Assembly: GCF_000008625.1 (NCBI RefSeq)
Contig: NC_000918.1
Span: 150,001-182,000, forward strand
Direction of reading: 5' to 3'
DNA: 32,000 bases
Source: Aquifex aeolicus VF5
GTDB lineage: Bacteria; Aquificota; Aquificia; Aquificales; Aquificaceae
This document shows, piece by piece, positions 6,794 to 32,000 of the stretch. Each line of letters opens with the position of its first letter. Position 1 is the first letter of the stretch. The translations under genes were made by a program, and so were the position numbers. The notes below the pieces were generated by a model that saw nothing but the letters and a program-made list of their open reading frames with translations, was not told the origin of the DNA and did not search any database.

Positions 6794-7891
6794 ATGCTTA
6801 CCGTGGGTATCCTCGGAGGTGGACAGCTCGGATGGATGACTATACTGGAAGGGAGAAAACTCGGGTTTAAATTTCACGTCCTTGAAGACAAAGAAAACGC
6901 TCCTGCCTGCAGGGTTGCTGACAGGTGTTTCAGAACAGGACAAATAAGTGAATTCGTAGACTCCTGTGACATTATTACTTACGAATTTGAACACATTAAA
7001 GATGAAGTTTTGGAAAAGTGCGAGAGTAAATTAATTCCCAACCCTCAAGCTCTTTACGTTAAAAAAAGCAGAATCAGGGAAAAGCTTTTTCTGAAAAAGC
7101 ACGGTTTTCCCGTGCCGGAGTTTTTAGTAATCAAAAGGGACGAGATAATAGATGCTTTAAAGAGTTTTAAACTTCCTGTGGTGATAAAGGCGGAAAAGCT
7201 TGGCTACGACGGAAAAGGACAGTACAGGATAAAAAAACTCGAGGATGCAAACCAGGTTGTCAAAAACCACGACAAAGAAGAAAGTTTCATAATTGAGGAA
7301 TTCGTAAAGTTTGAAGCGGAAATTTCCTGTATAGGTGTAAGGGACAGGGAAGGTAAAACGTACTTTTACCCTCAGCCATTCAATAAACACGAAGAGGGTA
7401 TACTTATTTACAACTACGTGCCCTATGCAAAGTTAAAAGAAGCTGAAGAAATAACTAAGAGGCTAATGGAGCTTTTAGATATAGTGGGTGTGTTCACGGT
7501 TGAATTTTTCCTGCTAAAAGACGGGAGAGTTTTAATAAACGAATTTGCTCCGAGGGTTCACAACACGGGACACTGGACCTTGGATGGAGCGTACACCTCC
7601 CAGTTTGAAAACCTCCTTAGGGCTATAACGGAAATGCCTCTTGGTTCTACGGAGTTAAAACTACCGAGCGGTATGGTGAATATACTCGGGAAATCTTATG
7701 AGGAAATCCCTCTGAAAGAAATCCTTTCCGTTGAAGGTGCAAAACTATACTGGTATGGCAAAGAGAAGAAACCAAGAAGGAAGGTAGGACACGTTAACGT
7801 GGTGGGAAGGTCAAAGGAAGAAGTAGTTGAAAAAGTAGAAAGAGTCTTCACACTTCTCAAAGGCTCAAGAGAAAAACTCCCAGCACCATGA
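6794..7891 (+). CDS. purK: N5-carboxyaminoimidazole ribonucleotide synthase (ATP-grasp)
   Basis: 365 aa. 'VGILGGGQLGWM' N-terminus, ATP-grasp core, and 'NEFAPRVHNTGHWT', typical of PurK. Confidence 0.9.
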   Translation: MLTVGILGGGQLGWMTILEGRKLGFKFHVLEDKENAPACRVADRCFRTGQISEFVDSCDIITYEFEHIKDEVLEKCESKLIPNPQALYVKKSRIREKLFLKKHGFPVPEFLVIKRDEIIDALKSFKLPVVIKAEKLGYDGKGQYRIKKLEDANQVVKNHDKEESFIIEEFVKFEAEISCIGVRDREGKTYFYPQPFNKHEEGILIYNYVPYAKLKEAEEITKRLMELLDIVGVFTVEFFLLKDGRVLINEFAPRVHNTGHWTLDGAYTSQFENLLRAITEMPLGSTELKLPSGMVNILGKSYEEIPLKEILSVEGAKLYWYGKEKKPRRKVGHVNVVGRSKEEVVEKVERVFTLLKGSREKLPAP

Positions 7892-8696
7892 TTATACTCG
7901 CCTTAAAAGCGTTCTTAACTTTTTCGCCGAAGAAGACCTTTCCGTAAAGGACGTCAAGGAGTATGGCCAGCCTTTCGGTGGCGGCAACAAATGAAGCGTA
8001 AGTGTAAATGTACGCCCACGTGTAGAATACCATCCCAAGGGAAAAGAACAGCCCTACAATTCCGAAGAACTTCCAGTCCGAAGAGAAGTCTTTAACCTCA
8101 AATCTCTTCACGAAAGGGATTAGAGCCAAGCTCATGACGAGGCAGTAATACCACGAAAAGAAAAACTGGTTACTGCTGACAACTGCAATTTTCCCTATTA
8201 CGACGTTCACGCCGAATAAGAAGGAAGAAAACAGGGCGTAAAGGACCCCTTTATTTAAGGTAAAGAAACTTTTAATGTTCTTTCCTGCGAGTAGTGTGGT
8301 TCCGTAAACTATGAGCAGTATTCCGAGCCAGTTTCTTAAGGAAAGAACTTCTCCTAAAACTATCCAGCCTGCGAGGGCGGAAAAAGCGGGCATTGTGGCG
8401 TAAAAAGGCATCGCAAGGGATAGGGGTGCGTACTTTAAAGACTTTATGAAGAAAATAGAGGCTAAAATTTCCGAGGGAAGCCATAAAAAAGTGGTTTTAA
8501 TCACGGTTTCGTTCAAATCCCAGTAAACTAAACCGAAAGGCAACAGCAGCAAAGCCCCGAGGGGAAATCTTATCCAGAGGACGAAGTTCTCTTCATAGCC
8601 TTTCAGAATGAGTTTTTTATTAAAAATGTCGTTGGTGGCCCAGAAGAAGGCAGAAAACAGAGAAAAGGTTATACCGAGTAGGTGATTGTATTCCAT
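7857..8696 (-). CDS. EamA/DMT-family transporter (about 10 TM segments)
   Basis: 279 aa, hydrophobic throughout, with two EamA-like halves. The start forms a TAATG overlap with the gatA stop. Confidence 0.75.
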   Translation of the reverse strand: MEYNHLLGITFSLFSAFFWATNDIFNKKLILKGYEENFVLWIRFPLGALLLLPFGLVYWDLNETVIKTTFLWLPSEILASIFFIKSLKYAPLSLAMPFYATMPAFSALAGWIVLGEVLSLRNWLGILLIVYGTTLLAGKNIKSFFTLNKGVLYALFSSFLFGVNVVIGKIAVVSSNQFFFSWYYCLVMSLALIPFVKRFEVKDFSSDWKFFGIVGLFFSLGMVFYTWAYIYTYASFVAATERLAILLDVLYGKVFFGEKVKNAFKASIIMVLGVFLLSL

Positions 8697-10132
8697 TAAG
8701 TGAGAGGTATTTTTTCGTAGTGTTTAAACTTCTGTTCCCATAAGTAGGAAATCTGAAGCAGGGTAGTTTCGTCCCAGTGCTTTCCTATGAGCTGCCCGCC
8801 TACGGGAAGCCCGTCTTTCCATGCTATCGGTATGGATATAGCGGGTAGTCCTGCGAGGTTTGCGGGAACGGTAAGTATGTCCGAGAGATACATCTCTATG
8901 GGGTTTTCAAGTCTTTCACCGAACTTGAAAGGTAGCGTCGGCGTAGTGGGGGAAGCTATAACGTCAACTTCCTCAAACGCCTTTAAGAAGTCATTCGTTA
9001 TAAGTCTTCTAACTTTCTGAGCTTTGAGGTAGTAAGCGTCGTAGTATCCCGCTGAAAGGGCAAAGGTACCGAGCATTATCCTCCTCTTTACCTCAGGTCC
9101 AAAGCCTTCGTCCCTCGTCCTTGCGTACATCTCAAATATGTCTTTGTACTCCTTAGCCCTGTATCCGTATCTAACTCCGTCGTATCTTGCGAGGTTTGAA
9201 GAAGCTTCAGAAGGAGCTATTATGTAGTAGGTGGGTATAGAGTACTTAACGTGGGGAAGGGAAACTTCCTTTATTTCAAAGCCTTCTTTCTCAAGCTCCT
9301 TTATAAAGTTTTCAAAGGCTTCTTTTACCTGAGGCTGGAGCTCGTACTCAAAGAATTCCTTTGGAAGACCTATTTTCAGACCTTTTACTTCCTTCTTTAC
9401 CTCTTCGCTCCACTCGGGAACGGGGACTTTTGCGCTTGTGCTGTCCTTTTCGTCCCAACCGCTTATTACCTCAAGCACGAGGGCTACGTCTTCCGTTCTC
9501 CTTCCGAACACTCCTATCTGGTCAAGGGAGCTTGCAAACGCCACGAGCCCGTACCTTGAAACTCTCCCGTAAGTCGGCTTTATACCTATGACTCCGCAAA
9601 AAGAGGCAGGCTGTCTAATGGAACCTCCCGTATCCGAGCCGAGGGACACCGGAGCAGACAGAACCGCAACGCTTGCCGCAGAACCTCCCGAAGAACCTCC
9701 CGGAACTCTTTCTAAATCCCAAGGGTTTTTAGTGGGAAAGAAGGCGGAGTACTCCGTAGAGGAGCCCATGGCAAATTCGTCAAGGTTAGTCTTTCCTACA
9801 ATAAGGGCTCCTGCTTTTTTAAGTCTCTCTATTACGGTCGCATCATAGGGAGCTACAAAGTTCTCTAGTATCTTGGAAGCACAAGTCGTTTTCTCTCCTT
9901 CAACGAGTATGTTGTCCTTTACCGCAATTGGAATACCAAATAGGGGGAGCTCCCTTTCTTTTAAGCTTTCCGCCTGCTTTAAAGCTTTTCCGTAGAGGGG
10001 TGTTATATAAGCCTTTACCTTTTCTTCCGTTTGGTTGTATCTATCGTAAAAACTCTCTACTACTTCCTTCGGAGAAACTTCTCCTCTTTTCAGGAGCTCC
10101 CTCAGTTCACTCAGGGACTTTTTCCAGAGCAT
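8696..10132 (-). CDS. gatA: Glutamyl-tRNA(Gln) amidotransferase subunit A
   Basis: 478 aa with the amidase signature 'GGSSGGSAASVA' and 'GSDTGGSIRQPA'. Confidence 0.95.
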   Translation of the reverse strand: MLWKKSLSELRELLKRGEVSPKEVVESFYDRYNQTEEKVKAYITPLYGKALKQAESLKERELPLFGIPIAVKDNILVEGEKTTCASKILENFVAPYDATVIERLKKAGALIVGKTNLDEFAMGSSTEYSAFFPTKNPWDLERVPGGSSGGSAASVAVLSAPVSLGSDTGGSIRQPASFCGVIGIKPTYGRVSRYGLVAFASSLDQIGVFGRRTEDVALVLEVISGWDEKDSTSAKVPVPEWSEEVKKEVKGLKIGLPKEFFEYELQPQVKEAFENFIKELEKEGFEIKEVSLPHVKYSIPTYYIIAPSEASSNLARYDGVRYGYRAKEYKDIFEMYARTRDEGFGPEVKRRIMLGTFALSAGYYDAYYLKAQKVRRLITNDFLKAFEEVDVIASPTTPTLPFKFGERLENPIEMYLSDILTVPANLAGLPAISIPIAWKDGLPVGGQLIGKHWDETTLLQISYLWEQKFKHYEKIPLT

Positions 10133-18874: not shown

Positions 18875-18966
18875 GGAAGGGTGGCCGAGCGGTCGAAGGC
18901 GCGGCGCTGGAAACGCCGTGTACCCCGTTTGGGGTACCGAGGGTTCGAATCCCTCCCCTTCCGCCA
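18875..18966 (+). tRNA. tRNA-Ser (anticodon GGA), encoded CCA
   Basis: Hand-folded. Acceptor GGAAGGG/CCCTTCC; D-arm GCC-GAGCGGTCGAA-GGC; anticodon stem CGGCG/CGCCG with loop CTGGAAA; long variable arm GTACCCC-GTTT-GGGGTAC; T-arm GAGGG-TTCGAAT-CCCTC; discriminator G; CCA. Confidence 0.9.
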
Positions 18967-18974
18967 TTCCCGCT

Positions 18975-19889
18975 ATGAAAATCAGGATTGGAACTAGGAA
19001 GAGTAAACTCGCCCTGTGGCAGGCGAATTACGTAAAAGATTTCTTAGAAAAACACTGGGGTGTTGAAGTAGAACTCGTAAAGATAACAACAACGGGAGAC
19101 AAAATTACCGATGTTCCCCTTGCAAAAATAGGAGGAAAAGGACTTTTTGTTAAGGAGATAGAAAAAGCGTTGCTCGAGGGTAGTATAGACCTTGCGGTCC
19201 ACTCCTTGAAGGACGTCCCTATGGTTATACCCAAAGGTCTGAAACTCGGAGCTATAACAAAGAGGGAAAACCCCTACGACGTTTTAATATCGCGAAGCGG
19301 AAAGAAACTTTATGAACTTCCCTCGGGTTCTGTTATAGGTACTTCTTCTCTAAGGAGACAGGTTCAGATAAAGAAAAGGAGAAGGGATTTAAAGGTAGAA
19401 GTCCTAAGGGGAAACGTGGACACTAGAATGAGGAAACTGAAGGAAGGACTCTACGACGCAGTAATCCTAGCATACGCAGGTGTAAAGAGGATGGGTTACG
19501 AAAGTGAGATAACGGAAGTGCTTGAAGACTTCATCCCTGCGGTAGGACAGGGCTCTCTCGCAATAGAAATCAGAGAAGGAGATAAAAGGATAGAGGAGTT
19601 AATAAAACCTCTAAACAACGAGGAGAGTTTTCTCTGCGCAATTGCGGAAAGGACGTTCTTAAGGAGGCTTGAGGGAGGATGTCAGGTTCCCGTGGGAGCC
19701 TTTGCTAAGATAGAAAACGGAACTCTTAAGATGAAAGCCTTTATATCTGACATTGAGGCTGAAAGGTATATAGAAGGGTATAGAGAAGGAAATCCCGAGG
19801 AGGCAGAAAAACTGGGACTTTCACTTGCAGAAGAACTCTTGAAAAAAGGCGGGGAGGAAATATTGAAGGAAATATACTCTTCCCAATGA
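18975..19889 (+). CDS. hemC: Porphobilinogen deaminase (hydroxymethylbilane synthase)
   Basis: '[17 protein letters not shown]' is the canonical HemC N-terminus. The longer ORF from 18918 runs through the tRNA, so I chose the ATG at 18975. 'RGNVDTR' and 'GGCQVP' (cofactor Cys) are present. Confidence 0.9.
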
Positions 19890-23859: not shown

Positions 23860-24678
23860 TTGTTTCCCGAAGTTATATCAGTTTTCGGACTGAAAATCAG
23901 CCTCTACGGAATTTTAGTAGCCTTGGGCGTTCTGGTGGGATACTTCTTAGTTCTAAAGCTAGCAAAAAGGGAAGGTCTCAATACCAAAGCGGTTGAAAAC
24001 ACCTTCATGATAGCGGTTCTCTTTGGAGTTATCGGAGCAAGAATTGCGTACATATTAGAGCACCCCTACGAGTTTCACTCCTTAGTGGACTTCCTCGCCT
24101 TGTGGAAGGGTGGCGTTTCCTTTTACGGAGGACTTATCGGTGGAATAATCGGGGCTTTAATAGGAATTAAGGTATTTAACCTACCTCTCTGGAAATCCGC
24201 GGACATAGCCGCTCCCGCGATAGCCTTGGCACACTTTTTCGGAAGGCTCGGGTGCACTTCCGCCGGTTGTTGCTACGGAAAACCCTTTCCTTACGCCACG
24301 AGCAACGAAGTAGGCATTCACTTTTCGGATAAATTTCCCTTCTTTTACGTAGTTTTCCCGAAAGGTGCGGTAGCACCTCCCTTTACTCCACTCTACCCAA
24401 CCCAGCTCATGGAAGCCTTCGGGAACCTTCTTATTTTCTTCGTCCTGCTTTTTGCCTACAGATACAAACCCTTCAGCGGTTTCGTGTTTTCCCTGTACCT
24501 TATGCTCTACGGATTTGAAAGGTTTTTCTTAGAATTCTTCAGGGGAGTAACCCCTCCCATTCCGGGCATAGGGCTTACGTGGAATCAGGTCGTTTCACTT
24601 GTATTAATCGCAGGCTCTATACTTCTTATGTTCCTCCTCAAGAACCAGAAAAGTAATGTGGTAGACTATGAAGTATGA
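23860..24678 (+). CDS. lgt: Prolipoprotein diacylglyceryl transferase
   Basis: 272 aa. '[12 protein letters not shown]', 'HFFGRLGC', and '[12 protein letters not shown]'. The start is TTG and is uncertain. Confidence 0.9.
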
Positions 24679-25886
24679 AAATAGCTTTCTTGAGACCCGG
24701 TAAAATAGGCACTCCCGCGAACCATGTTTACGCACTCCTTGATTACTTAAGGGAAAAGGGTGCGGAAATAAGAGAGTACGACCTGAAAGAAAGAGACGTT
24801 AACGATGTTGTAAAAGAAATTGAAGAGTGGAAGCCTCTATTCTTGATGGACGTAAACGCCACGGGTGTGATAGTTGCTGAAAGGGATGGTAAGAAGCACA
24901 TACTTGCGGATATCCTCGGTATAGTGCACGTGAGTGTGTTTTTCGAAGACCCTCTTCTCTTCTTCCCGGCCTTTGAAGGAGTGGAAAAGCCCCAGAACTA
25001 CATAGCGTTTATAACCGAGTTAAAACACACGGACAGTTTAACAGCCCTCGGTATACAGAACATAAGCTACATATCACCATTCGTGGATTTAAAACAATTT
25101 CCCGAATCCGAAGGGGAGAAGGATATAGAAATAGCTTTCGTGGGACCGGTTGTTGATCCCCAGATAATACTAAACTCCGTTTCCCAGAACTACCCTCAGG
25201 AGATTATGCCCTTCTTTATTGAAACCGGAGAGTTTATGTTCAGAAACCCTGAAGTTCACATCCTGACTGCGTTTAATTACGTCTTCGGGCTCTTTAATCC
25301 CCAGATGCAGGAACAGTTCAACAAGTGGAGAGAACAGAATCCCTCAGCTTTCATGAGGTTTCTAAACGACATAACCGCTTACACCACTATGAGGAGAAGG
25401 ATGTACCTCCTTCACTTTTTAGACGGTATGGATGTAAAGATCCTCGGTGATTATCAGGGCAACCTCTTTGAAAACCACGAAGCCATAAAGGTAAGTTCCT
25501 ACGAGCAACTCCTTAAGTACTACTCACGTTCAAACATAACCGTTTACGTGTCGCCTCAAACCTATCCAACGGGACTCAGCGTTATTCCCTTAGAAATCCT
25601 GTACATGGGAAGCCTTCCCTTAATAGACTTCAAAGGGGCTATCCCAGGCTTTTTAAAACCCGGTGAGGAGATAGAAACCTTTGCACCTCTCGACAGGGCT
25701 GATCTAGAAGAGAAAATCGTTTTCTACATAGAGGAGAACAGGGAAGGTATAAACGAAATAGTTCAAAGGGGTAAGAAGGCGGTTCAGGAAAGGTTCACCG
25801 TAAAAGACAGAGGGGAGTTCGTATACAACGTACTTTCGGATGTTAAGAGACAGTACGAAGCGGCGCAAAAGGGACAGGTCAATTAA
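24675..25886 (+). CDS. Hypothetical protein (possibly CgeB-like glycosyltransferase-fold protein)
   Basis: 403 aa, with an ATGA overlap with lgt. Only a general resemblance to CgeB/DUF3880-type proteins, and no catalytic motif I can name. Confidence 0.5.
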
Positions 25887-27612: not shown

Positions 27613-28299
27613 ATGAACGCCTGTGAGAGGTTATCCCGCGTCCTTGAGAGAATTCAGAAAGCCTGCGAGAGAGCGGGAAGGGGTGAGAACTGTGCGAAAC
27701 TTCTAGGAGCTTCTAAGACCGTACCTCCAGAAGTTATAAGGGAGTTTTATAACTGCGGACTGAAGGTTTACGGAGAAAACAGGGTTCAGGAGTTCCTCAA
27801 AAAGTATGAAGCCCTAAAAGATTTAGACTTAGAGTGGCACTTCATAGGGAGACTCCAGACGAATAAAGTGAAGTACCTTATGGGTAAAGTCGTCTTAATC
27901 CACTCCCTTGACAGGAAGAACCTCGCGGACGAAATACAAAAAAGAGCCTTTAAAAACAACATAGTTCAGGACGTTTTAATAGAGGTAAACGTGGGAGGCG
28001 AAGAAACGAAGGGAGGAGTAGAGCCCGAGAACTTAAAGGAACTCTTTGAGTACACTTTAGAACTTCCCAATGTAAAGGTTCTCGGACTCATGACCATACC
28101 TCCGTATCTTGAAAATCCCGAAGATGTCAGACCTTACTTCAGAAAACTCAGGGAACTGAGGGACGAGCTCCAAAGGGAGTACAACGTTGCACTTCCTCAC
28201 CTCTCCATGGGAATGTCCCACGACTTTGAGGTTGCGATTGAAGAGGGTGCAACTATCGTGAGAATAGGCACTTTGCTCTTCGGGGAGAGGAAGTATTGA
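27613..28299 (+). CDS. yggS: YggS-family pyridoxal-phosphate homeostasis protein
   Basis: 228 aa. 'LLGASKT' (PLP Lys), 'HFIGRLQTNKVK', and 'MGMSHDFEVAIEEGATIVRIGTLLFG'. Confidence 0.9.
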   Translation: MNACERLSRVLERIQKACERAGRGENCAKLLGASKTVPPEVIREFYNCGLKVYGENRVQEFLKKYEALKDLDLEWHFIGRLQTNKVKYLMGKVVLIHSLDRKNLADEIQKRAFKNNIVQDVLIEVNVGGEETKGGVEPENLKELFEYTLELPNVKVLGLMTIPPYLENPEDVRPYFRKLRELRDELQREYNVALPHLSMGMSHDFEVAIEEGATIVRIGTLLFGERKY

Positions 28300-28613
28300 A
28301 ACTAAAGTACAAGATATGGTTTGAGATAGACGGAGAGCCCGTAATAACGAAGTTAAAGTATGAGCTTCTTAAAAATATAGAAAAGACAAAGTCAATAAAG
28401 AAGGCTTCAGAACTCCTTAACATCTCTTACAAAAAAGCCCTTGAACACATAAAGGCTATGGAAAAAAGACTGGGTAAAAAAATAGTCGTAAGGGAGAGGG
28501 GAAAAGGGGCTTATTTGACAAAGGAAGGAAAAAAGTTAATGGAAATGTACGAGAGGGCAAAAAAGGAATTTGAAAAAACCGCCCGTTTAATTGAGGAGAA
28601 GGAGGGCATTTGA
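28296..28613 (+). CDS. ModE N-terminal-domain-like winged-helix protein (no molybdate-binding domains)
   Basis: 105 aa. 'WFEIDGEPVITKLKYELLKNIEKTKSIKKASELLNISYKKALEHIKAMEKRLG' matches the ModE/LysR-like N-terminal HTH domain. The start is TTG and overlaps the yggS stop. Confidence 0.7.
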   Translation: MKLKYKIWFEIDGEPVITKLKYELLKNIEKTKSIKKASELLNISYKKALEHIKAMEKRLGKKIVVRERGKGAYLTKEGKKLMEMYERAKKEFEKTARLIEEKEGI

Positions 28614-29963
28614 GGCTGTTGAGACGTACCTGTGGGGGAGTTTAATCCCTCCACTTTTCAGTTTTGGATTTTCGTTTATAGCCCTTTGAATGTCTTCTTC
28701 ACTTATCTTTAGTTCTTCTTTAGCCCTTTCGTACTCCTCAAAGGCTTTCATCTTTGCTTCGTAGAGCTTCATGAGAACTCTGCTCTTTACGTTAGCCTCC
28801 GCGTCTCCGGAAGTTTCCACCGCAACGAAGAGACTGCCTCCGAGGTCTTCTATCACTTTCGACTGAACACCGTCGCTCTGTGTGGAGGGCATGCAACCAA
28901 ATGGTTTTACGGATATTACCATGTGGGCTTTTTTGTGTTTAATCATGTATATGTGTTTTCCTACTTCCATGTGCCCCTCACCGCCCGAAAGCCTTACGTT
29001 GTAGTACCTGTTTGCGTACTGTGCGAGTTTTTTCTGGCTCTTTAATGGATCGGGTTTATTCCCCAGTGCCAGCCTGTAGAAGTTGTAAAGTCCCCTGAAG
29101 TAAACGTTCAGGGCTTTTAACGCCAGTATCGTCTTGAAAGCCTGCTTTCTATTTTTGAAAGCCTTTTCCTTAGTGTCGAGAATTTTTTCGTAAATCAGGT
29201 ACTCAATCCACGTGGATACGGGCTCAACTATCGGTTCCGCTCCCTCCTCTATAAGCCACTTTGCCATTCTGTAATTTCCGTCTCCTTCCGTAGTTTGTGC
29301 GAAGAACTCTCCCGTAATCTTTACCTTCGGTTTTGGCTGGAAGTAGTAAACCTTAAGATTGTCAAGCTTTCTCTTAACTTCCCTTAGGGCTTTAAATAAA
29401 CTCCTCCCGTTTCTGAGTGCCTCGTAGAGTATGTTCAGGCTCTCCTCCTTCCACATATCCGCGGAATTGGGAACTTCTTCGTACGGCTTTACTTTGTAGT
29501 AAACGTCGTTTATGAGGTCTCCGAGAATTACCGCCTTCATCAGACTCAAGAAAAAGTCCTTGTCGAACTTAAGTTCGCTTTCTCCCATTTCCTTTAGTAC
29601 AGCCTCACTCTGCTCGAAGGTTATTACTTTGAAGTCTCTAAAACCTGCGTCTTTTAAGGCTTTCCTGTACTCCATTTCGTACATGCCGAACCTGCAGGGA
29701 CCGCACGAGCCAGCTGTTACGAAGACGTACTTTTTCTCTATGTCTCTTTCGCCGCTTTCCCTCTTTTCCATCAGGTACTTTACGAGGTTTCCAACGGTGT
29801 AGTAAGTGGGGTTACACTGTCCTTTATTACAGAACTCCTTCCCCACTTTAAGGGCTTCGTTATCGGGAGTTGGAAGGGGTTCAACGTCGTAGCCCAGCCT
29901 CTCCATAGCCCCCTTTATTAAAAAGTCGTGAGCCTGAGTAAGTCCCCCGTAAAGTATCTTCAT
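28587..29963 (-). CDS. 2-hydroxyacyl-CoA-dehydratase-superfamily protein (HgdB/COG3581-like), third gene of the activase operon
   Basis: 458 aa. 'CNKGQCNPTYYTVGNL' and 'TAGSCGPCRFGMYE' Cys motifs, as in the C-terminal module of large activase-fusion proteins. 4-nt overlap with the upstream gene. Confidence 0.7.
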   Translation of the reverse strand: MKILYGGLTQAHDFLIKGAMERLGYDVEPLPTPDNEALKVGKEFCNKGQCNPTYYTVGNLVKYLMEKRESGERDIEKKYVFVTAGSCGPCRFGMYEMEYRKALKDAGFRDFKVITFEQSEAVLKEMGESELKFDKDFFLSLMKAVILGDLINDVYYKVKPYEEVPNSADMWKEESLNILYEALRNGRSLFKALREVKRKLDNLKVYYFQPKPKVKITGEFFAQTTEGDGNYRMAKWLIEEGAEPIVEPVSTWIEYLIYEKILDTKEKAFKNRKQAFKTILALKALNVYFRGLYNFYRLALGNKPDPLKSQKKLAQYANRYYNVRLSGGEGHMEVGKHIYMIKHKKAHMVISVKPFGCMPSTQSDGVQSKVIEDLGGSLFVAVETSGDAEANVKSRVLMKLYEAKMKAFEEYERAKEELKISEEDIQRAINENPKLKSGGIKLPHRYVSTASNALLLLN

Positions 29964-31378
29964 ACCGCTACCTCCCTTCTTTTTAATACTTCCTCTTCGT
30001 ACCTCTTCAAAAAGTAATCAATAGTCTCAACTCTTATCTTTATAGAACCAGAAGGTTTGTTTTCGTCCAGCTCGTGAAAGGTAAAGTAGGGAGTGTTGGT
30101 TTCTTCTAAGATTTCCTCTATTAACGAGTATATGGGGGCGTCGTGCCCGCACCTGAAGGAAGATAGGTCAACTCCTGCAAGGTTCGGGTGTCTTGCCGTG
30201 TACTTTGCCGCCCATACTTTCATGGAAGAATTTTCGCTGTAGCACTTCTTCCAGACGTCCCTTATATCCATAGGGTGTTCTATCCTTCCCTCCAAAATGT
30301 CCCTCTCAAATATCCTGTAAAGGATGTCCTCGTCCCTCGGAAGGCTCTCTATTGTAAAAATCGGGTAGCCCCTTTTGTTTATCTCGTCTAAGATTTCGTG
30401 GTTTATCCCCGGGTCGTTGTGGTAGGGTCTTCCAAGGAGAACTACTCCAACCTTTCCTTCCCTTTCCAGTCTCTCCAGAACTTCCCTTGCCCTTTCCCTT
30501 AAAGTTCTCCTGTACTCCTCAAGTGCCCTCAGACCTTCCCTTACCGCCTCCCTGTTTTCCTCTTTCGTTATTCCGAATAAGGGATTAAATACTTTGTAGA
30601 GTTGTCTCTCTAAGAGTTCCGTGTCTTCCAAATCCAGAACCGGGTCAAGGTATATCACTCCCCTTTCCCTGAATTCGTCCCTTTCCTTTGTAAAACTAGC
30701 CTTCACGACTTCGGGTGTTGCCGAAACTGTGGGACACGCCCAGTGCCCTTCAGCCTTGTATATCTCTCCCTGAAGTGTCCTTATACAGGGGAAAAAGATG
30801 ATGTTCACTCCTTTCTTTTCAAAAAGGAGGTTGTGAACGTGGGCTATTGCGACCTTTGAAGGGAAACACGGGTCTATTGATCCCCTCTTTGAGCCTCTTC
30901 TGTAGAGCTCTTCGCTCGTGAAGTCAGAAAAAACTACCTTTTTAACTCCGAGGGCTTCGAAGTACGTCCTGAAGAAGGGAGCGTAAGAGTATACGTTCAA
31001 GACTCTCGGAATTCCGATTACCGCGTTCTTCAAGAATTCAAGTTTTTTCTTCCTGAAGAAGTTAATTATTCCATTTTCCTTTACCACTTTTTTCGGTTTG
31101 TAGGACTTGAAGAGGAGTTTATTCGAAATCTCAACGAAGTTCGGGTACTTTTCCTGCAGGGAACTCCTTTCTTTTAGGAGTTTTTTTAGCTCTTCCTTGC
31201 TCTCCACTTCCCCTTTATCGCACGTGGCTATTATGAACCTCTTTTTTTCTTCGTTTACCTTGAGATCTATGAAGGTTCTTATGCACAGGTTCTTACAAAA
31301 GTGACAGCGGGTCTCCTCGCCCCTTATGGTTTCGTAATCAATCTTATCCAGGTTTTCAAAACCTATAAAGTTCGTCAT
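29960..31378 (-). CDS. DUF2229-type 'CoA enzyme activase uncharacterised domain' protein (COG3580-like)
   Basis: 472 aa. N-terminal 'CHFCKNLC', 'IGIPRVLNVYSYAPFFRTYFEALG', and 'FRCGHDAP'. 4-nt overlaps on both sides. Confidence 0.7.
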   Translation of the reverse strand: MTNFIGFENLDKIDYETIRGEETRCHFCKNLCIRTFIDLKVNEEKKRFIIATCDKGEVESKEELKKLLKERSSLQEKYPNFVEISNKLLFKSYKPKKVVKENGIINFFRKKKLEFLKNAVIGIPRVLNVYSYAPFFRTYFEALGVKKVVFSDFTSEELYRRGSKRGSIDPCFPSKVAIAHVHNLLFEKKGVNIIFFPCIRTLQGEIYKAEGHWACPTVSATPEVVKASFTKERDEFRERGVIYLDPVLDLEDTELLERQLYKVFNPLFGITKEENREAVREGLRALEEYRRTLRERAREVLERLEREGKVGVVLLGRPYHNDPGINHEILDEINKRGYPIFTIESLPRDEDILYRIFERDILEGRIEHPMDIRDVWKKCYSENSSMKVWAAKYTARHPNLAGVDLSSFRCGHDAPIYSLIEEILEETNTPYFTFHELDENKPSGSIKIRVETIDYFLKRYEEEVLKRREVAV

Positions 31379-32000
31379 ACTAATACTCCCTCCGCTTCTT
31401 TTACTCTCTTTGCTTCAAGGGCTGCACCTATTGCCCCTGCTACGCTTCCCATGGGGTGAACGTAAACCTTTGCTTCTGGGACTTTAGACTTTATGTAATC
31501 CACCTGAGCTTTTACCACCGCGAGGTTTTTATGGGTTCCTCCCTGAAGAACGAATACCTTTCCGAGCTTCCTCAAGTTCGGCTCCTGCATTACGTAAAGC
31601 CAGACATTCAAGGGCAGAACCTTTGCGAGTCCTGCCATTATCTCTTCCGCGGTCCATCCGAGTTGCTGGAAGTTAACTATGTCCGCCTCTAAAAATACAG
31701 CACAACCAAAGTTAAAGGAGGGACAGTACTTGGCTTTAAAAGCCACGTCCGCATACTCTTCCACCCTGTATCCGAACCTGTTTGCGGTGGACTGGAGGTA
31801 ATAACCGTTTCCAGCGGAACACTGGGTGTTCAGTCTAAAGTCTTTAACCTTTCCGTTCCTGAGGATTATGACCTTTATATCTTGCCCGCCCACGTCGCAT
31901 ATCACTTCCGCGTCGGGGAAAAACTTAAGGGCTCCGAGCGTGTGGGCTACCGTTTCAACTATTGCAACGTCTCCGCCGAAAGCCATCTTGAGAAGATCTT
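31375..32000 (-). CDS. BadF/BadG/BcrA/BcrD-type ATPase (HgdC-like activase), C-terminal part; N-terminus lies beyond the window
   Basis: The frame stays open past the listed Met to the window edge. It has the ASKHA-fold motif 'ICDVGGQDIKVIIL', and 'NTQCSAGNGYYL', 'VLQGGTHKN'. Confidence 0.8.
   Translation of the reverse strand, partial: DLLKMAFGGDVAIVETVAHTLGALKFFPDAEVICDVGGQDIKVIILRNGKVKDFRLNTQCSAGNGYYLQSTANRFGYRVEEYADVAFKAKYCPSFNFGCAVFLEADIVNFQQLGWTAEEIMAGLAKVLPLNVWLYVMQEPNLRKLGKVFVLQGGTHKNLAVVKAQVDYIKSKVPEAKVYVHPMGSVAGAIGAALEAKRVKEAEGVLV

Follow-up and report, generated by a model that had tools for sequence, protein, structure and literature searches.

A three-gene operon of Aquifex aeolicus as a candidate split ester-to-ether reductase of the PlsA/PlsR-Ger family

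The 32,000-nucleotide stretch of the Aquifex aeolicus VF5 genome considered here (contig NC_000918.1, positions 150,001 to 182,000, referred to below as the window) ends within a minus-strand operon whose genes, here named aqBB, aqD and aqX, encode a tandem ATPase, a DUF2229 protein and a catalytic-type subunit. Sequence comparison gives solid, well-supported grounds for assigning this operon to the PlsA/PlsR-Ger family, and we consider it on balance probable that its products constitute a split, thermostable, ATP-driven iron-sulphur ester reductase of that family which makes the alkyl glycerol ethers of A. aeolicus. The ether-lipid role is one that we infer, and for which the operon is a plausible candidate. 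At the level of homology the idea is not new and is already implied in the literature, because the Ger study (Sci Adv 2022) listed Aquificae among the phyla with Ger homologues; what is new is the recognition of the unannotated X subunit, of a conserved TetR partner, of a three-clade structure with clade-specific residues, and of repeated fusion and fission of the modules. The finding will not surprise a specialist, yet it makes an unsolved enzymatic mechanism more tractable, and likewise the origin of the non-isoprenoid alkyl glycerol ethers of Aquificales, a question as old as the description of these lipids (Huber et al. 1992, as cited in PMC4339782). The features of the operon within the window are the following.

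28587-29963, minus strand: aqX, open reading frame of 458 amino acids, catalytic-type subunit
29960-31378, minus strand: aqD, open reading frame of 472 amino acids, DUF2229 subunit
31375-32000 (open frame to the window edge), minus strand: aqBB, C-terminal 207 codons and stop, tandem double ASKHA (BcrAD_BadFG) ATPase, or "activase"
31375-31393, minus strand: translational coupling signal, consisting of the ATGA overlap of the aqBB stop and aqD start (31378-31375) and the Shine-Dalgarno sequence GGAGGGAG (31393-31386)
29960-29978, minus strand: translational coupling signal, consisting of the ATGA overlap of the aqD stop and aqX start (29963-29960) and the Shine-Dalgarno sequence AAGGGAGG (29978-29971)

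The sequence gtATGA occurs at both the aqBB/aqD and the aqD/aqX junction, with start and stop codons overlapping by 4 nucleotides (nt), and a GGAGG-type Shine-Dalgarno sequence lies 6-10 nt 5' of the aqD and aqX starts. The open reading frames and these junctions bear out the proposal of an initial annotation, made from the letters alone, that three minus-strand genes are coupled here by 4-nt overlaps; the Aquifex-like source which that annotation had considered is A. aeolicus itself, to whose proteins aqX and aqD are 100% identical. The part of the operon beyond the window edge is covered by a near-identical assembly contig (L001), in which the full aqBB gene encodes 611 amino acids (8169-10004) and is directly preceded, with a 20-nt overlap, by a TetR-family gene of 191 amino acids (7613-8188), so that the complete unit is TetR-BB-D-X, where BB, D and X denote the modules corresponding to aqBB, aqD and aqX. 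No transmembrane segment is predicted in the operon proteins (the maximum 19-residue Kyte-Doolittle mean is 1.41). The neighbours of the operon genes are those for the TetR regulator, EndoIII, a ModE-like helix-turn-helix (HTH) protein and YggS.

The first module is an ATPase of the kind found in HgdC-type activators. The portion of aqBB inside the window matches BcrAD_BadFG (PF01869) in Pfam with an E-value of 8.2e-57 (model positions 77-271), and the full 611-residue protein contains two PF01869 stretches (E 6.8e-99); the earlier reading of a BcrA/HgdC-type ATPase is sound as to family and has to be corrected to a tandem double ATPase. Four cysteines, C127 and C166 in the first domain and C464 and C503 in the second, are invariant in 24 of 24 sequences, and their arrangement is the pattern of the bridging cluster in HgdC-type activators. 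The ligands of the second domain, C464 and C503, lie inside the window part.

In aqD, residues 121-345 match DUF2229 (PF09989, E 6.5e-61), with the characteristic pattern IGIPRVLNVYSYAPFF at residues 121-136, and the N-terminal motif is C25-x2-C28-x3-C32. Seven cysteines, C25, C28, C32 and C53 in an N-terminal module and C171, C215 and C410 in the core, are conserved in all eight aligned sequences, four of which come from the two other clades described below. In aqX the motifs CNKGQCNP and GSCGPCRFG occupy residues 45-52 and 85-93; C50, C90 and C357 are conserved in each of the 11 sequences compared, and C87 is invariant solely within the Aquifex-type proteins. All of the motifs listed in the initial annotation were found in the translations. 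The profile searches proposed there gave BcrAD_BadFG in aqBB and DUF2229 in aqD, and no HGD-D match in aqD or aqX; aqX has no Pfam or NCBIfam match whatever, even at E <= 10, and contains no HGD-D or DUF2229 fragments.

The assignment to the PlsA/PlsR-Ger family draws on the order in which the three modules align to fused proteins. The 1475-residue fused protein of Listeria is matched by BB over residues 1-575 (31.5% identity), by D over 583-986 (27.7%) and by X over 1009-1354 (23.4%), which amounts to collinearity over the full length; BB, D and X tile the fused proteins (1450-1600 residues) of Collinsella, Haliovirga and Acetoanaerobium in identical order. In particular, aqX aligns to residues 1145-1537 in Collinsella, to 1057-1442 in Haliovirga, and to the 404-residue second gene product of Fusobacterium, whose two-gene form (BB and D fused as BBD, followed by X) is collinear with Aquifex BB-D-X. 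This form, shared with C. perfringens PlsA-PlsR, splits at the same D/X point as the Aquifex operon. Every cysteine that is invariant across the compared systems (4 in BB, 7 in D and 3 in X) is common to Aquifex and the PlsA-type relatives. Judged by these alignments, the counterpart of aqX is PlsR or, in the fused PlsA/Ger proteins, the C-terminal third.

The published work on this family concerns how lipid ether bonds are formed. Plasmalogens are made by PlsA-PlsR of C. perfringens (CPE1194/1195) and by single-gene enzymes in facultative anaerobes (PMC9702350, PMC12838417); the fused form is found in E. faecalis (EF1327) and in Listeria. The Ger proteins of T. maritima (Tmari_0479/AGL49404) and D. 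alkenivorans (SHJ90043) yield 1-O-alkyl ethers when expressed in E. coli, and that of D. alkenivorans yields dialkyl ethers as well (PMC13159169, PMC11150832). Expression of Ger and PlsA in E. coli results in esters being converted into ethers (PMC13159169, PMC11150832, PMC12838417). All of the alkyl-ether producers examined in the Ger study, except Acidobacteria, carry a Ger homologue (Sci Adv 2022), and in the searchable literature DUF2229 is mentioned solely in connection with Ger. What the initial annotation said of PlsA/PlsR and Ger agrees with these publications (PMC8788747, PMC13159169, PMC9702350).

The likeness of the Aquifex operon to Ger, as judged from the published description of Ger, lies in the set of parts: two BcrAD_BadFG domains, DUF2229 and a C-terminal dehydratase-like part. 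Ger is a single polypeptide of about 150-160 kDa, whereas the Aquifex system consists of three polypeptides, and in the published architecture of Ger (BBD, then small H/D fragments) the C-terminal part gives small HGD-D and DUF2229 Pfam matches, of which aqX has none. The products of Ger, saturated sn-1 alkyl ethers and, in D. alkenivorans, also diethers, are of the lipid type reported in Aquifex: A. aeolicus is reported to contain ester and ether phospholipids, with C18/C18, C18/C20 and C18/C21:1 diethers as well as monoethers (Jahnke et al. 2001, as quoted in PMC4339782 and PMC3917532). The non-isoprenoid ether lipids that the initial annotation ascribed to Aquificales are in these sources reported for this species. 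Its proposal of the operon as the ether-lipid-forming enzyme is partly supported, by the module order, the cysteines and the lipids of the host, and is weakened by the position of the Aquifex proteins in a clade of their own and by an X module only 20-26% identical to its PlsA-type relatives.

The steps by which a split ester reductase of this kind might operate can be drawn from HgdC/BcrAD activators, 2-hydroxyacyl-CoA dehydratases and the published work on PlsA and Ger. A single [4Fe-4S] cluster, bound by C127/C166 and C464/C503, would bridge the two domains of BB and be reduced by ferredoxin or flavodoxin, and ATP binding and hydrolysis would cause BB to inject an electron into a D-X heterodimer. 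D would provide both a relay site at the N-terminal four cysteines and a three-cysteine cluster of catalytic type, and X would provide a second three-cysteine cluster. At one of these D/X clusters the sn-1 (perhaps also the sn-2) ester carbonyl of a membrane glycerophospholipid would be reduced and dehydrated to a vinyl ether, which would then be reduced to the saturated alkyl ether, for a total of 4 electrons and 4 protons with the loss of one water. The outcome would be alkyl glycerol mono- and diethers like those reported for A. aeolicus.

A number of observations weigh against this explanation, and the first group of them concerns sequence distance. Neighbour-joining (distance-based) trees were computed for BB, D and X, separately and concatenated, for 24 taxa, among which PlsA type is represented by Listeria-type relatives and not by the validated proteins AGL49404, SHJ90043, Q8XL48/Q8XL47 and Q835P9. 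For each module alone and for the concatenation the trees contain three clades with 99-100% bootstrap: clade A, comprising Aquifex and its relatives; clade P, comprising Listeria, Collinsella, Fusobacterium and Acetoanaerobium; and clade H, comprising Haliovirga, Hypnocyclicus, Spirochaetes, Fibrobacter and deltaproteobacterial metagenome-assembled genomes (MAGs). All three Aquifex modules belong to clade A, apart from clades P and H. Aquifex-type systems are 37-62% identical to Aquifex in all three modules, and members of clades P and H are 30-38% (BB), 27-31% (D) and 20-26% (X) identical to it, the corresponding values for the PlsA/PlsR type being 30-34%, 28-29% and 23-26%. About half of the X positions that are invariant in clade A hold other residues in clade P, where they are mostly conserved (from clade A to PlsA type, G48 is replaced by D, N51 by Y, H331 by W, K353 by Q and S360 by N). 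The X positions specific to the clade are 48, 51, 54, 55, 87, 89, 98, 99, 226, 227, 231, 331, 333, 336, 351, 353, 360, 363, 364, 367, 384 and 387. The phylogeny against PlsA and Ger that the initial annotation recommended has in this form been obtained with Listeria-type relatives standing for the validated enzymes, and it separates clade A from the Listeria/PlsA-type clade P. A homologue search seeded with Haliovirga returned the clade of Spirochaetes, Fusobacteria and Deltaproteobacteria without Thermotoga or Desulfatibacillum.

The second group concerns the hosts and their genomes. In PMC13159169 Ger and PlsA are assigned to anaerobes, and Ger is described as restricted to these, whereas Aquifex respires oxygen; clade A also occurs in Tepidiforma, another oxygen-respiring host, and on a contig carrying cytochrome oxidase genes. 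Among the listed aqX and aqD matches of at least 58% identity there is no named Aquificales isolate besides A. aeolicus, to which the only megabase contig also belongs, and all other matches lie on contigs from MAGs or metagenomes that are no larger than 0.33 Mb; the homologue lists reach down to about 48-50% identity, and more divergent homologues are possible. The patchy distribution weakens the assignment because orthologues in the complete genomes of Hydrogenobacter, Thermocrinis, Persephonella and Sulfurihydrogenibium would be expected among the matches, and Thermocrinis ruber is reported (PMC4339782) to have the same ethers. The co-occurrence of operon and ether lipids across Aquificales thus extends to A. 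aeolicus and to no other named isolate among the close matches listed, which bears on one of the outcomes that the initial annotation had named as contrary to its proposal, absence of the operon from relatives that produce ether lipids. X is not adjacent to BB-D in some Aquificales MAGs, and in eleven clade-A loci no lipid-biosynthesis neighbour recurs, TetR alone doing so.

These observations bear on a different explanation, according to which clade A has the shared architecture and a diverged substrate, some other carbonyl or unsaturated compound such as a fatty acyl-CoA or acyl carrier protein thioester. We regard this as possible and rather unlikely. The bootstrap support for a separate clade A in each module, the replaced X residues with an X identity of 20-26%, the occurrence of clade A in aerobes and microaerophiles, and its patchiness in Aquificales among the listed matches, where ether lipids are reported more widely, all speak for it; what argues in the other direction is that the metal-ligand cysteines and the module order are all common to the PlsA-type proteins, that ether-bond formation is the sole function linked to DUF2229 in the literature, and that A. 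aeolicus is reported to make ether lipids and has no other known candidate enzyme for them.

The TetR regulator is relevant to both explanations. In Aquifex, as in Aquificales MAGs and at four loci of other lineages, a TetR gene is found directly 5' of the clade-A genes, and the clade-A TetRs are 34-40% identical to the Aquifex TetR over the full length (E 1e-38 to 1e-46), which points to a regulator that is orthologous across phyla and was co-inherited with the genes. When a profile of these proteins was compared with solved structures, the best matches were YsiA 1vi0 (E 9e-23) and B. subtilis FadR 3whb (E 6e-22), followed by 6azh, 5gpa/5gp9, 3lwj and 6el2. We take 1vi0, 5gp9 and 6el2 to be acyl-CoA-binding regulators of the FadR type, and FadR-like TetR relatives in general are presumably acyl-CoA sensors. 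Such relatives are consistent with a function linked to fatty acyl groups, which they fit and do not prove, and the TetR probably acts on the operon as a repressor that responds to acyl-CoA. The presence of B. subtilis FadR among the closest solved relatives can be counted in favour of a diverged acyl substrate; as a point against it, a TetR gene is also present upstream at PlsA-type loci (PMC9702350), namely in E. faecalis and Collinsella. Between the clade-A TetR and the one that lies upstream of the clade-P gene in Collinsella the relationship is only distant, and at the Planctomycetota loci an Rrf2-family regulator (Fe-S type) replaces TetR upstream of BBD. At the Collinsella aerofaciens locus (L026 847-7728) the clade-P fused gene, which encodes 1593 amino acids, is preceded by a TetR-like gene and followed by one for 3-hydroxyacyl-CoA dehydrogenase; no such fatty-acid-metabolism neighbour is present in the clade-A loci.

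In a third explanation the operon encodes a plasmalogen synthase like PlsA/PlsR that stops at the alk-1-enyl ether instead of making saturated alkyl ethers. The module set is the same as in C. perfringens PlsA-PlsR and in the two-gene form of Fusobacterium, and according to the Ger laboratory in 2026 Ger and PlsA are not presently distinguishable by sequence (PMC13274423). The product of PlsA is, however, a vinyl ether, and the ethers described for Aquificales in PMC4339782 are alkyl mono- and diethers and not plasmalogens; the Listeria PlsA-type protein, for its part, belongs to a clade other than clade A. On this evidence a plasmalogen synthase is improbable.

A fourth explanation would have the operon encode an enzyme resembling either the double-cubane cluster protein (DCCP) or the 2-hydroxyacyl-CoA dehydratases and benzoyl-CoA reductases, with small molecules or CoA esters as its substrates and a place in energy or carbon metabolism. 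A sequence search of the PDB (phmmer) with aqX and aqD gave nothing significant, and a fold search was therefore used. AlphaFold2 models computed on family alignments are confident, with a pLDDT of 87.7 for aqD and 86.8 for aqX. Compared with the PDB by Foldseek, the aqD model matches DCCP (7yyl/6eno), MbdON (9g87) and the (R)-2-hydroxyisocaproyl-CoA dehydratase HadBC (3o3m), and the aqX model matches DCCP (7yyl), HadC (3o3m_B) and BzdNO (8s02). The set of matches is the same for both, with a probability of 1.0, yet the matches are remote (TM-score 0.3-0.5, 9-13% identity); the top match of each is DCCP, with E-values of 3e-5 for aqD and 6e-4 for aqX and a TM-score of about 0.4. Profile-profile comparison of aqD with aqX gave no signal of paralogy (probability 3%). 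The models indicate that aqD and aqX are two diverged subunits of the ATP-dependent radical dehydratase/reductase superfamily, and the earlier description of aqX as HgdB-like is accordingly apt at the level of the fold and finds no HGD-D match to support it at the level of sequence.

Like the Aquifex system, the 2-hydroxyacyl-CoA dehydratases HadBC/HadI and HgdAB/HgdC and the class I benzoyl-CoA reductases BzdNOPQ and MbdONPQ have an ASKHA activator that is driven by ATP and carries a bridging [4Fe-4S] cluster, and two paralogous catalytic subunits (HadBC, HgdAB, BzdNO, MbdON) of one fold with a three-cysteine cluster in each. The Aquifex system differs from them in the lack of a sequence-level match, in the fused tandem activator, in an unrelated gene context, and in the extra N-terminal four-cysteine module of aqD. 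DCCP/DCCP-R of Carboxydothermus hydrogenoformans (6eno, 7yyl) belongs to the same superfamily and is an ATP-dependent reductase. The DCCP protein is homodimeric, and each of its subunits has a six-cysteine [8Fe-9S] cluster, whereas the Aquifex D and X are two different subunits with three conserved core cysteines each, and the similarity of fold is remote.

An enzyme of this fourth kind, which we consider improbable, has on its side that 7yyl, 6eno, 3o3m, 8s02 and 9g87 are the best Foldseek matches of D and X and that the source annotations read "activator of 2-hydroxyglutaryl-CoA dehydratase" and "acyl-CoA dehydratase activase-related". Opposed to it are the remoteness of the fold matches (with the TM-scores and identities given above), the absence of any PF06050 HGD-D match in D or X, scores far below the cut-offs of the NCBIfam equivalogs for benzoyl-CoA reductase, the absence of adjacent genes for CoA-transferase, 2-hydroxyacid dehydrogenase or aromatic degradation, an activator whose two domains are fused, a trait of PlsA and Ger, and the chemolithoautotrophy of A. 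aeolicus (PMC3917532). Of kinship with bona fide 2-hydroxyacyl-CoA dehydratases, which the initial annotation had named as an outcome contrary to its proposal, the proteins give no sign, having neither an HGD-D match nor a dehydratase gene context.

Two specific identities of this kind were also considered and rejected. A bona fide 2-hydroxyacyl-CoA dehydratase is rejected on the grounds that PF06050 is missing, that the activator is a 611-residue tandem and not a homodimer of single-domain subunits of about 260 residues, and that no pathway genes are adjacent. A class I benzoyl-CoA reductase is rejected on the scores of the NCBIfam models for BcrA, BcrD and BzdQ, which are 78.8 bits for TIGR02259 (cut-off 578), 57.7 for TIGR02261 (cut-off 312.85) and 43 for TIGR03192 (cut-off 380.2).

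The modules of clade A are widely distributed and have been repeatedly joined and separated. An exhaustive search with aqX yielded 1812 representative clusters at E <= 1e-3, of which 187 are found at E <= 1e-30, and a genome scan with exact 8-residue words yielded 14 loci, all in MAGs. The members of clade A come from Aquificae, Chloroflexota (for example Tepidiforma), Acidobacteriota, Planctomycetota, Nitrospirota, some Spirochaetota and Brevibacillus. The close relatives of aqX are standalone proteins of 450-550 residues with 50-60% identity, from Chloroflexota (Tepidiforma thermophila), Nitrospirota, Spirochaetota and others, and the close relatives of aqD outside Aquificae are mainly BBD fusions with about 50% identity, from Acidobacteriota, Planctomycetota and Chloroflexota. 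The arrangement BBD + X is found in Tepidiforma, in Brevibacillus and in several MAGs. BB, D and X occur as three genes in Aquificae and on one metagenomic contig, of which a close relative with matching synteny carries BBD as a fusion.

Fusions of other kinds are found within clade A as well: a fully fused BBDX (P0263, 1579 residues), a circularly permuted X-BB-D (P0279, 1623 residues) and a D-X fusion (P0252). The first two of these proteins have different module orders, and the order is therefore not fixed in the clade. In P0243, a metagenome protein of 1271 residues from ENA, a clade-A X is joined to Fer4_20/Pyr_redox_2, an NAD(P)H oxidoreductase resembling GltD, NfnB and DPD, and to a C-terminal 2x[4Fe-4S] ferredoxin, which suggests that clade-A reductases may have a dedicated NAD(P)H-linked electron supply. 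Taken as Rosetta-stone fusions, these proteins indicate that the three modules act together and that electrons may be supplied from NAD(P)H.

Several individual loci illustrate the variability of the arrangement. The metagenomic loci L030 (4456-10014) and L024 (4712-9452) share their flanks, with two PmbA/TldD genes upstream and DUF4438 and LytB genes downstream, and one of the pair has TetR with separate BB, D and X while the other has a fused BBD with X; the difference is due either to fission or fusion in the recent past or to a frameshift in the assembly. In an Aquificales MAG (L010 3617-8086) TetR-BB-D is followed by a Crp/cNMP-binding regulator in place of X; in an Aquificota MAG (L016 4117-8549) a fused BBD of 1058 residues is followed by a GGDEF protein; and at a further locus (L021 8001-9332) a lone X gene with 61% identity to aqX stands beside a Pyr_redox_2 (pyridine-nucleotide-disulfide oxidoreductase) gene. 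X is thus unlinked from BB-D in some cases, or possibly absent. In Planctomycetota MAGs (L011 3482-10894, and also L012-L014) a 436-residue protein with HEAT-repeat and PDZ domains is encoded between BBD and a longer X of 674 residues. At the Tepidiforma locus a GT4 glycosyltransferase gene lies immediately 5' of BBD, and genes for catalase-peroxidase and heliorhodopsin are nearby.

A further proposal, which we hold to be doubtful, is that clade A is a third lineage within the PlsA/Ger superfamily with a function of its own, and not merely a split Ger. Clade A is set apart in this way because it has its own invariant X residues, a co-inherited FadR-like TetR, oxygen-respiring hosts and an occasional fusion to an NAD(P)H oxidoreductase. 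If the proposal were true, the sn-1,2-dialkyl diethers of Aquifex could be the products of a clade-A ester reductase compatible with oxygen, and clade A might also be relevant to the ether lipids found in soil bacteria that are aerobic; or else its substrate could be something that is not a phospholipid.

The Aquifex system, if it is the split ester reductase of our preferred explanation, would offer tractable access to the ester-to-ether chemistry of PlsA and Ger. Ger expressed in E. coli is found largely in inclusion bodies (PMC11150832), and a naturally split hyperthermophilic version, with polypeptides of 458-611 residues each, would make enzymology, spectroscopy and structural work practicable. 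In addition, the distinction between the clades and the clade-specific X residues provide a testable sequence criterion where Ger and PlsA are stated to be at present inseparable by sequence (PMC13274423), and such a criterion bears on the reading of bacterial ether-lipid biomarkers.

The remaining features of the window concern the surroundings of the operon. The gene for the ModE-like/LysR-type HTH protein (28296-28613, plus strand, 105 amino acids; TIGR00637 E 3.7e-14, HTH_1 E 1.9e-9) is convergent with aqX, the 3' ends overlapping by 27 nt, and its start overlaps, by 4 nt, the YggS-like gene upstream of it (27613-28299). At a distance of about 3 kb from the operon, genes for Lgt (prolipoprotein diacylglyceryl transferase, PF01790) and a Glyco_trans_1_2 protein overlap one another by 4 nt (23860-25886, plus strand); they are the sole lipid-related neighbours of the operon, and their proximity is probably coincidental. 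Scans of the window for tRNA genes and Rfam families gave nothing bearing on the operon, and the single RNA gene detected (ARAGORN, Rfam) is a tRNA-Ser (GGA) at 18875-18966 on the plus strand. A listed open reading frame with a GTG start (18918-19889) begins inside this tRNA gene, and its true start is probably further downstream.

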